A DNA stretch of 64,000 bases from Spirochaetia bacterium (GCA_963677925.2 CAXXYH010000004.1:960001-1024000); one strand, 5' to 3'. Shown: positions 33,280 through 37,358, counted from the stretch's first letter. A program made the numbers and translations. The notes: a model not told the origin generated them from the letters alone.

Positions 33280-33705
33280 TTATCTGCAGTAAACCTTGAC
33301 TGTTGAGTCGTCTGAATCAACATCTACTGTAAGCTGTTCAAGTGCACTAAGAATATCCTGCACATTTTCGGGTTTGATGTCGTTCAGATTGAAGTTCATC
33401 CCCTTATCTGCCATTGACGTGTTTATCTTGTCCTGGACATCTTCCGGTATCAGTCCCATGATATTCAGTCCGGCTTTAAGCAGGGCAAACGGTACTTTGA
33501 CAGAAACCCTGTCGGATGATTTTCCGTCCTTTGGATCAACCTGGACGTAAAGAAATTTGCTCTCCAGGGAACTCAGCAGATCTGCTGTTCCGGAGCCGGT
33601 CGGTTCTTCGGTTTTTTCCACCGCATTCAGCAGCTTTTCTGCTTCTTCTGCGCTGATCTTGCCTTCTGCAAGCATATTAAGAATTTTCATTTTATCATCA
33701 GCCAT
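33280..33705 (-). CDS. SHOCT-like (YvlB/LiaX N-terminal) domain protein
   Basis: KILNMLAEGKISAEEAEKLL; V.VKVP..L..AG motif; in operon with DUF2089. Confidence 0.75.
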   Translation of the reverse strand: MADDKMKILNMLAEGKISAEEAEKLLNAVEKTEEPTGSGTADLLSSLESKFLYVQVDPKDGKSSDRVSVKVPFALLKAGLNIMGLIPEDVQDKINTSMADKGMNFNLNDIKPENVQDILSALEQLTVDVDSDDSTVKVYCR

Positions 33706-33719
33706 ATTATCCTCCGTAA

Positions 33720-33992
33720 TTACCTTATATATAGTGTTACATTCGATTTATCCGAATGGGCTATTATTTCGGTTCCTCTTGCTGCAGCTAAAATTTGAGG
33801 AAGCCGAAATACAATCTTCATATATATTCCTGCCTGCGATGCTGTGTTTCCGCTTGCGGCGATAAAGATGTAGATTATGCCGCAGATTAAATATGCCGGA
33901 AGCAGCAGTATATAAATAATGATCAGCGGTATGAAAAGGCTGAATGAAGTATTTTCATCCCTGATTTTCAGTCTTAACAGCATCGGCAGCAT
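33720..33992 (-). CDS. Small hypothetical membrane protein
   Basis: 90 aa with a long hydrophobic segment; translationally coupled to DUF2089. Confidence 0.7.
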   Translation of the reverse strand: MLPMLLRLKIRDENTSFSLFIPLIIIYILLLPAYLICGIIYIFIAASGNTASQAGIYMKIVFRLPQILAAARGTEIIAHSDKSNVTLYIR

Positions 33993-34357
33993 TATTCGAG
34001 CTCCTTCAGTGCATCATTTACATCTATTTCACCGCGTTCAAGTTTTTCAATAACGCTTGAAACACTTGCCTTTATATCAACGGAGATGTCAACAAGTCCA
34101 ATTTTTGATGCAATCTGGTTAAGTCGGTTTTTGACTGTAGGGTATGAGATTCCGAATATGCTCTCCATCTGTTTGATTGATCCGTGGGTTTTAATGAAGG
34201 CCGCAACGAATATCTGCTCCTCCATGCTCAGCCTTCCCAGCGGCGGCAGTTCGAACTCTCCCTCAATGTCTATCTGATCTGAGGGCACCCTCACTTTTTT
34301 TATTATGAACTCTTTTCCGCCTGTCATAGCGTCGAGTTTTTTCCAGCTGTGGATCAT
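33992..34357 (-). CDS. DUF2089 family HTH protein
   Basis: IEGEFELP.L.RLS.EEQ.F...F....GSIK.ME..FGISYPTVKNRL; RBS GGAGG supports a start at 34357. Confidence 0.88.
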   Translation of the reverse strand: MIHSWKKLDAMTGGKEFIIKKVRVPSDQIDIEGEFELPPLGRLSMEEQIFVAAFIKTHGSIKQMESIFGISYPTVKNRLNQIASKIGLVDISVDIKASVSSVIEKLERGEIDVNDALKELE

Positions 34358-34547
34358 CTTAATCCTCCGATGTTTTAAATATAGCACTGCAATATGTTAA
34401 AATCAATAAAAATGTTTATAAAAATTGAAAATATTAATATAGAAGAGGAAATAAATTAAATATATTAATATATAGCCTCTAATAATGCAGGGCCAAGGTC
34501 TGATTTTCCTGAATTTTACAATTTTACCGGTAACTTTCATTTTTGGA

Positions 34548-34577
34548 TTGACGTTTAGTATTAAAAAGTATTACCCT
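34548..34577 (+). promoter_or_regulatory. sigma70 promoter (TTGACG-N18-TACCCT) containing a tandem AGTATTA repeat, candidate RHH operator
   Basis: AGTATTA at 34557-34563 and 34567-34573 (10-bp period), in the spacer and running into the -10 box. Confidence 0.55.
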
Positions 34578-34586
34578 TGATGCAAT

Positions 34587-34835
34587 ATGAAAGAACAGGT
34601 TGTTACATTTAAAGCTGATCCGGAGCTTGTTAAAGCTCTAAACAGCATACCCAATAAATCAGAGTTTATAAGAAATTCGATCAGGGAAGCTCTCGGGAAT
34701 AAATGTCCGCTCTGCAACGGTTCAGGAACGCTGAGTGAAATGCAGAAACAGCACTGGGATGATTTCATGACGCATCACAAGCTGGAAGAATGCAATGAAT
34801 GCCATCAGGTTCATATTAAATGTGAATTGGAATAA
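34587..34835 (+). CDS. Ribbon-helix-helix (CopG-like) regulator with Cys/His metal-binding tail
   Basis: VVTFKAD.EL..AL....NKSEFIR.SI..AL RHH pattern, then CPLC...HW...HH...CNECH..H..C. Confidence 0.8.
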   Translation: MKEQVVTFKADPELVKALNSIPNKSEFIRNSIREALGNKCPLCNGSGTLSEMQKQHWDDFMTHHKLEECNECHQVHIKCELE

Positions 34836-35756
34836 ATGGAGAATAGAATGAAACAGTTGACCGTATTAATGCTGTCACTATCAATATTTGCTCTGGCTGT
34901 TTTTCCTGTGTTTTCATCGGGGAGATCAGAAGAGCCGGAAAACGGTACGGGCTATTCAGTTTTTGTAAGTATTCCGCCGCAAAAGTATTTTGTTGAAAAA
35001 ATTGGCGGTGATCATGTTTCTGTAAGAACGATGGTTCTTCCAGGCCGCAGTCCTGCAACCTATGATCCCAGTCCTTCCCAGGTTATTGCGCTTGGTAAAA
35101 GCCGGGTTTTTTTTACGATTGGTGTAGCCTTTGAGGCTGCATTTCTTCCGGGTATCAGGGATAAGGCGGATAGTCTTCTTATAGTCGATACATCTGAAGG
35201 TATTAAGAAAAGGATGCTGGAGCATCATTTACATGAGGGTGAAGATGACGGGCATGATGAGGATGAGGGTGAAACAATAGACCCTCATGTCTGGATGTCG
35301 CCGGTTTTGGTAATGAAACAGGCTGAGACAATTTACAGGACCCTGGTTTCATTAGATCCGGAAAATGAAGCCGATTATGCAGCCGGGTACAATGAACTTA
35401 TCAGTGAGCTGGAAAATCTTGACTCGGTGCTTGAACTTGACCTGGCTCCCTTTAGAGGGAAAACTCTTTTTGTTTTTCACCCTTCATTTGGATATTTTAC
35501 CGATCGTTACGGTATGCGGCAGTTAGCGATAGAGACAGGCGGCAAGGAGCCTTCTGCAGCGGAGCTTGAAGAAGTTATCGGGCATGCCCGAGAGAACGAT
35601 GTAAAGATAGTTTTTGTACAGCCGGAGTTCTCAAGGCAGAGTGCTGATGCAATTGCCAGGGCTGTCGGGGGTATGGTTATAGTTCTTAATCCGCTTGCAG
35701 AGGATTATATTGATAATATGTATATGATTTCAGAAAATGTCAGGAAGGCATACTGA
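34836..35756 (+). CDS. znuA: Zinc ABC transporter substrate-binding protein (start may be 34848)
   Basis: VSIPPQKYFVEKIGG, SPATYDPSP, His/acidic loop HHLHEGEDDGHDED, DPHVWMSP, FHPSFGYF. Confidence 0.9.
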   Translation: MENRMKQLTVLMLSLSIFALAVFPVFSSGRSEEPENGTGYSVFVSIPPQKYFVEKIGGDHVSVRTMVLPGRSPATYDPSPSQVIALGKSRVFFTIGVAFEAAFLPGIRDKADSLLIVDTSEGIKKRMLEHHLHEGEDDGHDEDEGETIDPHVWMSPVLVMKQAETIYRTLVSLDPENEADYAAGYNELISELENLDSVLELDLAPFRGKTLFVFHPSFGYFTDRYGMRQLAIETGGKEPSAAELEEVIGHARENDVKIVFVQPEFSRQSADAIARAVGGMVIVLNPLAEDYIDNMYMISENVRKAY

Positions 35757-36502
35757 TGGCGGATCCTATGACCGAGCTGCTTAAGGCTGACGATATAACA
35801 TTCGGCTATGATGTTCATCCAGTTATTGAGAACGCAAGTTTCAGTATCAATAAAAATGATATCATAACCATAATCGGTCCCAACGGCGGGGGAAAGACTA
35901 CACTGCTAAGACTTCTGATGGGGCAGCTTAAACCCCAGAAGGGGAATGTCAGAATAAACGGAGATCGGACCAGATTTTTCGGTTATGTGCCGCAGCATTC
36001 CGAGCTTGATCCCTCATACCCTGTTACAGTCAGGGAAGTGGTTCTTTCGGGCAGAATAAAGAGTTTTGGTTTCTATTCCAGGGCAGATAAGGACGCTGCA
36101 GAAGCCTGCCTTCAGCAAGTCGGTCTGGACGGGCTTGGGGGGCGTACGTTTTTTGAACTTTCCGGCGGTCAGCGCCAAAGAGTTCTTATAGCCAGGGCTC
36201 TTGCATCAAGTCCCGAGGTTCTGCTTGCTGATGAGCCTACAGCCAATATTGATACGGATGCAGAGAAGCAGCTTTCCGATCTGCTTCAAAGGCTGAGCAG
36301 TGAGCTTACCATCGTTCTTGTTACCCATGATCTGGGATTTGTTTCAGATATTACAAGCAGGGTTCTATGTGTAAACCGGCGTGTGGTTGAGCATCCGGTT
36401 GAAGAAGTTGATGAAGAGTTGATAAGCGCTTCCTACGGAAGGCAGATGAAGGTTGTAAGGCATGATCATCTTTTGGAAAAAGAGAGGCCGGTAAGTGAGT
36501 GA
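35756..36502 (+). CDS. znuC: Zinc ABC transporter ATPase
   Basis: GPNGGGKTT, GYVPQ, LSGGQRQRVLIARAL, DEPTA, VTHD. Confidence 0.9.
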   Translation: MADPMTELLKADDITFGYDVHPVIENASFSINKNDIITIIGPNGGGKTTLLRLLMGQLKPQKGNVRINGDRTRFFGYVPQHSELDPSYPVTVREVVLSGRIKSFGFYSRADKDAAEACLQQVGLDGLGGRTFFELSGGQRQRVLIARALASSPEVLLADEPTANIDTDAEKQLSDLLQRLSSELTIVLVTHDLGFVSDITSRVLCVNRRVVEHPVEEVDEELISASYGRQMKVVRHDHLLEKERPVSE

Positions 36503-37358
36503 TTTTATAGCGGCATTGTTCAACCCGGATGTTCCCTTTATAAGAATGGCCTTTCTTGCAGGTATAATCGGAAGTATTCCATTCGGTTTCATCGGCAGCT
36601 TTGTCGTTGTGAGAAAGATGAGTTCGGTTGCCGGCGCAGTAAGCCATTCTATCCTCGGCGGTATCGGCCTTGCGCTGTATATGAGTACGGTGCTGGGAGT
36701 TGTCTGGCTGACTCCTACAATAGGGGCTTTTGCATTTGCTCTTATTGCCGCCGGAATTCTCAGTGCAGTAATGACCTTCGGGAAAGAGAGGCTCGATACG
36801 GTTATCGGAGCTGTATGGGCTGTCGGTATGTCGCTGGGACTGCTGTTTATTGCTAAAACTCCCGGCTATATCGACCCCATGAGTTACCTTTTTGGAAATA
36901 TACTGTTAATCAGCAGCGGTGAGCTGCTTACCATAGCGATCTTCTCTCTGGTTGTGCTTGCTGCGGGAATCGTGTTTTACCCCCAGCTTCAGGCTGTTTC
37001 CTTTGATGCTGAGTTTGCTCAGACAAGAGGGCTGAATATCAGAGTCTATCAGACAATAATTCTTATCCTAATCAGTGTTACCGTTGTCCTTATGGTCTCA
37101 CTTGTAGGGACTGTGATGGTTATAGCTTTTCTCACCATTCCGCCTGCAATGGCTTCTGTGTTTTCAAGAAGGCTGTCTGGAATGATATTGTACTCTATTC
37201 TGTTTTCAATCATTCTGTCGATAACCGGTCTGGTGGTTAGTTATCAGCTTGATATGGCTACCGGTTCTGTTACCATTATTCTTGCCGCAGCGGCATATAT
37301 TTTATTAAGAGTATTTAAGATTATTTTTGACAGAATCAGGATGAAGGCTTCTAAATAA
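36495..37358 (+). CDS. znuB: Zinc ABC transporter permease
   Basis: G.FVV.RKM.....AVSH..LGG, SYLFGNIL, SFD.EFA..RG. Confidence 0.9.
   Translation: MSDFIAALFNPDVPFIRMAFLAGIIGSIPFGFIGSFVVVRKMSSVAGAVSHSILGGIGLALYMSTVLGVVWLTPTIGAFAFALIAAGILSAVMTFGKERLDTVIGAVWAVGMSLGLLFIAKTPGYIDPMSYLFGNILLISSGELLTIAIFSLVVLAAGIVFYPQLQAVSFDAEFAQTRGLNIRVYQTIILILISVTVVLMVSLVGTVMVIAFLTIPPAMASVFSRRLSGMILYSILFSIILSITGLVVSYQLDMATGSVTIILAAAAYILLRVFKIIFDRIRMKASK

Follow-up and report, generated by a model that had tools for sequence, protein, structure and literature searches.

A small ribbon-helix-helix protein with a Cys/His domain as a predicted zinc-responsive regulator of znuACB in spirochaetes and other bacteria

In a 64,000-nucleotide stretch of the genome of a Spirochaetia bacterium (GCA_963677925.2 CAXXYH010000004.1:960001-1024000; the whole stretch is called here the window), the zinc-uptake genes are headed by the gene of an 82-amino-acid protein that combines a ribbon-helix-helix (RHH) unit with a Cys/His domain, and the promoter of this regulator-znuA-znuC-znuB operon contains a 17-bp box of two heptads, GTAWTAC-N3-GTAWTAC (Table 1). 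Comparative genomics across 136 genomes shows that the box at znuA depends on whether the genome carries the RHH gene, and binding of the box by the 82-amino-acid protein is strongly implied. Judging from sequence, the protein, when loaded with zinc, probably occupies both heptads, blocks the promoter and keeps znuACB as well as its own gene repressed; loss of zinc would release this repression. With slightly less assurance, we regard the protein as a likely minimal (about 80 amino acids) RHH zinc sensor that has a 17-bp operator and a regulon of its own. It would replace Zur across about ten phyla and follow NikR as the second class of RHH proteins that sense a metal, and it may have arisen when an RHH-zinc-ribbon protein gained a sensing site (H64 and C79) and a new DNA-reading residue.

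A scan of GTDB genomes brought up 466 candidate stretches, of which 409 were confirmed, and the best 80 loci served for the linkage and box counts. A gene of the znuA, znuB or znuC type lies at most 3.5 kb downstream in 69 of the 80 loci; it is absent in eight, in one of which a COG0523 GTPase gene comes next, and three loci end at a contig edge. In the Desulfobulbia sample, which represents the class of Hydrosulfovibrio, the gene is present in 8 of 61 genomes, and all eight matches come with znu genes as well as the box. The original prediction had described an 82-residue open reading frame (ORF) with the observed Cys/His pattern directly abutting znuA, and had proposed that homologues should be linked to znuA as members of an uncharacterised RHH family with a Cys/His tail, tied to zinc uptake. 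The ORF was reproduced, Pfam names the znu genes, and the family is borne out by the linkage and the box across homologues.

The family spans about ten phyla among the GTDB stretches, and a profile search retrieved 2690 clusters at 90% identity. The best 80 of the 409 stretches include Spirochaetota, Planctomycetota, δ-proteobacteria, Zixibacteria and Ignavibacteria, as well as Hydrogenedentota, Verrucomicrobiota, Fibrobacteraceae, Bacillota and Bacteriovoracaceae; a homologue from Reinekea turned up in a separate homology search. The nearest relatives belong to Spirochaetia, where the gene is present in 57 of 151 sampled genomes, always in a single copy (three as partial matches). Homologues are labelled in databases as 'CopG family' or 'hypothetical', the top clusters of the ESM Atlas have either no name or 'putative CopG family' and no common Pfam family, a search of a plasmid collection gave no family match, and a search of sequencing runs listed no RNA holder.

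The box consensus was derived by visual inspection of the aligned upstream regions of the same 80 loci. If up to two mismatches are allowed, 72 of the 80 loci carry the box in the 300 nt upstream. This is far above chance, the box occurring in 1 of 910 windows taken downstream and in 5 of 1600 shuffles, but the count is partly circular because the consensus came from these very loci; the lone-gene and gene-negative tests presented below are not circular. The repeat AGTATTA had been noticed in the window at 34557 and 34567, between the two promoter hexamers, and does occupy these positions; on window evidence alone it is weak, as four heptamers repeat at a 10-bp period within 64 kb. The GTATTA-like repeats expected upstream of homologues were found, so that the tandem operator is real, the AGTATTA repeat being itself only a part of the 17-bp heptad pair.

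Save for the central base, a heptad reads the same on both strands, and the four possible orientations of the half-sites are about equally common (30, 30, 25 and 22 among 113 distinct contexts), whereas the period of 10 nt between half-sites, observed in 110 pairs, is far above any other spacing. Half-sites that flip freely and lie one helical turn apart would suit two symmetric RHH dimers. In 32 of the 113 contexts the box begins 3-4 nt past a -35-like hexamer, and in 29 of these 32 there is a T at position 6 of the -10 element, outside the box; the remaining boxes are situated at or downstream of the -10 element, over it or over the start region. All of these are positions typical of a repressor. 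The window operator extends across the promoter spacer into the -10 element, of which it takes up the first half, and since the start codon follows only 9 nt after this element, the mRNA would be nearly leaderless. A promoter scan of the window did not list the znu promoter. No Zur, Fur or NikR box was found in the region 34388-34600, where the best Zur/Fur matches have 4 of 12, 8 of 22 and 7 of 18 mismatches and the best NikR-type match has 4-6 mismatches of 14, so control of the operon from a Zur box, named at the outset as a refuting case, was not observed.

In Spirochaetia, the box is found at 50 of 56 loci, is absent in five and could not be assessed in one (these genomes partly overlap the 80 loci). 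Where the gene is convergent behind znuB (L075, L126, L145 and L151), the box sits at the znuA promoter. Lone RHH genes carry no box of their own; in all five box-less Spirochaetia genomes with a lone gene, a one-mismatch box precedes a distant znuA, and in the first set, where five of seven box-less lone genes were examined, the box again precedes a distant znuA in five of five. Because the box stays at znuA when the gene is elsewhere, the regulator is predicted to act in trans. The proposed role of an autorepressor would hold insofar as the gene lies under the window box; with the box at a distant znuA in 10 of 10 cases, the protein appears to be a trans-acting regulator of a regulon and not only an autorepressor.

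Among the gene-negative Spirochaetia, 80 of 94 genomes were searched, 64 of which have znuA, and the best znuA locus was examined in 60. The box was detected at this locus with at most one mismatch in a single genome and with at most two mismatches in three, and a box of the TGCAA-N-TTGCA type, like that of Zur_D in PMC545781, was found at znuA in 12 of the 60. Directly behind the lone box with at most one mismatch lies a frameshifted remnant of the regulator, followed by a frameshifted znuA (L188), which may reflect either decay of the operon or an assembly error. An exact box occurs in 26 of 56 gene-positive genomes (32 sites; reversed-pattern control, 2) versus 3 of 80 gene-negative genomes (control, 2). 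The three exact boxes in gene-negative genomes comprise two inside ORFs and one upstream of a DUF6290 antitoxin/ParE pair (L245:994-1517), which is possibly read by an unrelated RHH-like protein. Kinship of the regulator to the DUF6290 antitoxin was considered and rejected (profile probability 2.5%).

No Pfam or NCBIfam model matches the regulator above its cut-off, and there is no match to Fur (PF01475), Zur or NikR; Pfam gives RHH_1 with E 0.013, below the cut-off, and the DnaJ zinc finger with E 0.003, and the sub-threshold RHH_1 match recurs in 7 of 27 family members. An AlphaFold model of the regulator (predicted local distance difference test, pLDDT, 86.5) has the two RHH helices at residues 12-19 and 24-36, followed by one more helix (51-61) and a hairpin (64-79). 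A structure search returned mostly RHH proteins among 45 rows, the best short alignments covering residues 1-36 with a root-mean-square deviation (rmsd) of 1.3-2 Å, and Foldseek found nothing in PDB at E <= 0.001. The assignment of the N-terminus to the strand-helix-helix unit of the RHH superfamily, as originally claimed, is thus supported by the model and by low-scoring structural matches, despite the Pfam score below the cut-off. For the Cys/His domain neither Foldseek against PDB nor the structure search gave a convincing match, which does not imply a new fold. The CPLCNGSG-helix segment of this domain resembles the zinc ribbon of anti-TRAP (RtpA) with E 2e-4.

Among 124 distinct sequences, residues F8, K9, N23, S25, F27, I28, R29, C40, P41, C43, G45 and G47 do not vary; H56, H64, C69, C72 and C79 are each kept in 123. 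Strand residue 7 is Thr or Ser in 123 of the 124 short forms. One natural single chain of 185 amino acids (P0049) consists of two complete RHH-Cys/His units in tandem.

The significance of individual residues is suggested by a long-form sister subfamily of Planctomycetia (about 145 amino acids; loci L286-L305 and L308, proteins P0125 and P0135), which contains RHH, CPLC, a second CxxC and further Cys/His motifs and has no Pfam match. None of the 21 long-form loci has a znu gene within about 1.5 kb, and a box is lacking at one mismatch or fewer and present in four at two mismatches; znu genes and box both occur at the two short-form loci that this search also retrieved. Of 16 long-form proteins, none has C79, three have H64, 12 have H56 and 14 have Ala as strand residue 7; the RHH structure predictions are monomer models, and residue 7 changes along with the loss of the box. 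Candidates for the sensing site are H64 and C79, located at either end of the predicted hairpin and peculiar to the znu-linked form, together with H56. The Cys/His tail as a whole had been proposed to sense the metal; a part of its Cys set is common to the sister subfamily without the zinc link, so not all of the tail need sense.

The genome of the window also encodes four Fur-family proteins, none of which scores above the NCBIfam cut-off and none of which is located at the window operon. One of these genes belongs to a run of an ArsP_1 permease (two ORFs), TIGR03943, the Fur-family gene and a lone znuA2, followed by feoAB (C3:429212-432296, L084). ZnuA2 is 53% identical to the window ZnuA, and the upstream regions of ArsP_1 and znuA2 have in common a TTGCAAA-N-TCGCATTTAC box, which differs from the RHH box. 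This run is likely a spirochaete Zur regulon, and the box at znuA in 12 of the 60 genomes without the RHH gene is similar. The Fur-family gene and its own box at znuA2 suggest that the genome probably also has a Zur-like regulator, and that two systems divide the zinc genes between them. Independence from Zur, as first proposed, is thus retained for the window operon, which has no Zur box, and does not extend to the genome, where a check for zur revealed the Zur-like gene beside the second znuA.

Of the 32 exact sites, 22 lie at the RHH/znu locus and 10 elsewhere. The distant sites include four before an ArsP_1/DUF1980 pair, two before znuA and one before a COG0523 GTPase gene. Boxes with one mismatch were found at COG0523 genes in G132 and G164 and at further znu genes in G044 and G060. 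The literature searched contains no zinc role for ArsP_1/DUF1980, and such a role is suggested by the genomic context. In one of these genomes, G132, an exact box also lies in a region that contains small ORFs and a capsid-like gene and in which no zinc gene is visible (L251:1-2028). For the genome of the window, a wider regulon is not supported, as genome-wide matches are no more numerous than in shuffles, and the data speak for the window operon alone as a target.

The following mechanism could account for these observations. When zinc is plentiful, the protein would bind the box and block RNA polymerase; when zinc is low, it would leave the box and znuACB would be made. Each self-complementary heptad would accommodate one RHH dimer, the two dimers facing the same side of the DNA and being separated by one helical turn. 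C40, C43, C69 and C72 probably form a structural zinc ribbon, as the resemblance to anti-TRAP suggests, and the sensing site may be made up of H64, C79, H56 and a fourth ligand, either H63, H76 or a residue of the neighbouring subunit. Filling of this site would raise the affinity for DNA, perhaps by bridging the two dimers.

The same box could be bound by a protein whose zinc is only structural, with an indirect output through zinc-dependent folding or survival or relay by a partner, or with the protein serving as a plain feedback damper. The presence of the four cysteines in the subfamily that has no link to zinc genes, and the likeness of the CPLCNGSG-helix segment to the anti-TRAP zinc ribbon and, weakly, to the DnaJ zinc finger are compatible with this possibility, which we nevertheless hold to be unlikely, given that H64 and C79 are nearly invariant in the znu-linked form only, that the znuA box may lie at a distance from the gene, and that no conserved partner gene was seen. 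Somewhat more doubtful is a metal-sensing repressor for another ion (Co, Ni, Mn or Fe) or for the thiol redox state. In its favour, every NCBIfam match on the window ZnuA falls below the cut-off and AztC and MntC score alike, so that Zn-binding cannot be parted from Mn-binding proteins here, and Ala replaces the first metal-binding His (SPATY instead of DPHTY in the closest solved zinc-binding protein), a position at which 65 scored linked binding proteins have His in 30 and Ala in 13, the motif being unmatched in 17. The half-site also resembles the δ-proteobacterial NikR half-site shown in a passage of PMC545781. On the other hand, among solved chains the window ZnuA comes closest to 1pq4 (E 1.1e-59), a binding protein for zinc uptake, zinc-binding proteins occupy the top of the list, the targets include COG0523 and His-rich binding proteins, and gene-negative genomes often have a Zur_D-like box on the same genes.

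It is very improbable that some other factor, either a Fur/Zur paralogue or NikR, owns the box and that the RHH gene is a regulated passenger. The Fur-family genes of the window genome, the lone RHH genes lacking a box and the exact box before the unrelated DUF6290/ParE pair would agree with such a passenger; the znuA box, however, tracks the RHH gene over the 136 genomes with a sole exception that holds a broken copy, the spacer is 3 nt as opposed to 13-14 nt for NikR, the Zur-like gene of the window genome has a different box, and the freely flipping half-sites would fit a two-fold symmetric RHH dimer. Reverse logic, in which the zinc-free protein binds and activates transcription, has hardly any likelihood: no direct point speaks for it, even if Helicobacter pylori NikR can also activate, as noted in a passage of PMC11672702, and the location of the box in the -35/-10 spacer, over the -10 element or over the start region is that of a repressor.

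Several observations weigh against a zinc-sensing RHH repressor with its own regulon, in addition to the partial circularity of the box count. Three distant exact boxes remain, one inside a LacI-like ORF, one unexplained and one cut by a contig end, and most other distant sites with one mismatch look like chance. The genome of the window has four matches above 17 bits compared with 4-6 in shuffles, and its remaining top matches fall mostly inside ORFs. In two related spirochaete genomes (L270 and L273) a box with zero and one mismatch, respectively, lies within metK, in one of them just after TTGAC on the opposite strand. COG0523 genes are in many cases, though not in all, under Zur regulation or part of the zinc-starvation response, according to a passage of PMC11672702. 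A second structure model is poor (pLDDT 63), the Z-scores of the structure search are low (2-3.3), and C40, C43, C69 and C72, common to the long form that is not linked to zinc genes, may be purely structural. Finally, the sampled genomes share ancestry, so that the counts, which ignore kinship, overstate independence; they represent patterns and not probabilities, because related genomes are not independent.

Judged by sequence and predicted structure, the regulator presumably works like Zur and NikR, as a metal-co-repressed repressor of uptake, and belongs to neither. With NikR it shares an N-terminal RHH unit (residues 1-36 align with rmsd 1.7-1.8 Å and Z 2.2-2.5), the position at the head of a metal ABC importer operon, presumed co-repression by metal and, in δ-proteobacteria, a similar heptad half-site (a passage of PMC545781). 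The structural match stops at residue 36; the rest of the 82 residues form a Cys5/His2 domain of roughly 40 residues, in contrast to NikR, for which a passage of PMC11672702 describes a central metal domain that forms tetramers and has His3Cys nickel sites. The NikR half-sites of the δ-proteobacterial form are also much farther apart than the 3 nt of the regulator box, and the targets here are zinc genes. Zur, including Zur_D of Desulfovibrio, likewise targets znuABC and COG0523, and the two regulators appear to swap, as ArsP_1/DUF1980 and znuA carry either the RHH box or a TGCAA-type box beside a Fur-family gene; the folds are unrelated, the regulator having no Fur match, and the boxes differ.

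Other small RHH repressors include Omega, Arc, CopG and antitoxins, and Omega dimers are placed on heptad repeats in the title of entry 2bnw. These repressors are not known to carry such a metal domain. The regulator family differs from them in being chromosomal and single-copy, with no match in the plasmid collection. With anti-TRAP and the DnaJ zinc ribbon it has in common the CPxCxGxG-plus-helix segment, but the anti-TRAP match covers about 26 residues, anti-TRAP has no RHH unit, and the second CxxC as well as H64 and C79 are outside the match. TroR of the DtxR family is a non-Fur regulator of metal uptake. AdcR of the MarR family is a non-Fur regulator of zinc uptake (a passage of PMC11672702); both have helix-turn-helix folds, and no similarity of either to the regulator was found.

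In the part of a 2024 review devoted to uptake regulators (PMC11672702), the families named are Fur, DtxR, NikR and Rrf2, with NikR as the one RHH protein, specific for nickel only. The literature searched contains no description of the regulator family or of the box; most subscription papers and RegPrecise lay outside its scope, so a prior prediction may exist. A zinc-sensing RHH protein, if true, adds a structural class of metalloregulator. It also offers a possible answer to a gap of 2004, when znuABC was reported in a passage of PMC545781 for three δ-proteobacteria without Zur or Zur sites, the named species not being among those compared here. Since the protein, the operator, the targets and the candidate ligands are all defined, the system is directly testable in E. 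coli, and an 82-residue sensor with a 17-bp operator would, if confirmed, make a compact biosensor part.

Table 1. Predicted features of the regulator-znuACB operon (positions counted from the first letter of the window)
Feature	Position	Strand	Basis
-35 hexamer TTGACG, predicted sigma-70	34548..34553	+	sequence
Predicted operator GTATTAA-AAA-GTATTAC, 17 bp	34558..34574	.	1 mismatch to GTAWTAC-N3-GTAWTAC
Predicted -10 hexamer TACCCT, 18-nt spacer	34572..34577	+	sequence
Regulator gene, 82 amino acids	34587..34835	+	ORF; stop codon 34833-35
Regulator RHH domain, residues about 1-37	34587-34697	+	Pfam, AlphaFold model, structure search
Regulator Cys/His domain, C40-C79	34704-34823	+	conserved residues, model
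znuA-type solute-binding protein, His/Asp/Glu-rich loop	34836..35756	+	Pfam ZnuA 1.5e-66
znuC-type ABC ATPase	35756..36502	+	Pfam ABC_tran
znuB-type ABC-3 permease	36495..37358	+	Pfam ABC-3 5.5e-59

Upstream of the operon, a divergent run on the minus strand (33280-34387) encodes a DUF2089 helix-turn-helix protein, a 90-amino-acid membrane protein and a SHOCT-like protein, and was not seen as a conserved neighbour. Within the operon, there is no gap between the regulator gene and the first ATG of znuA at 34836; the start of znuA is likelier at the second ATG, 34848, because this one is preceded by GGAG.

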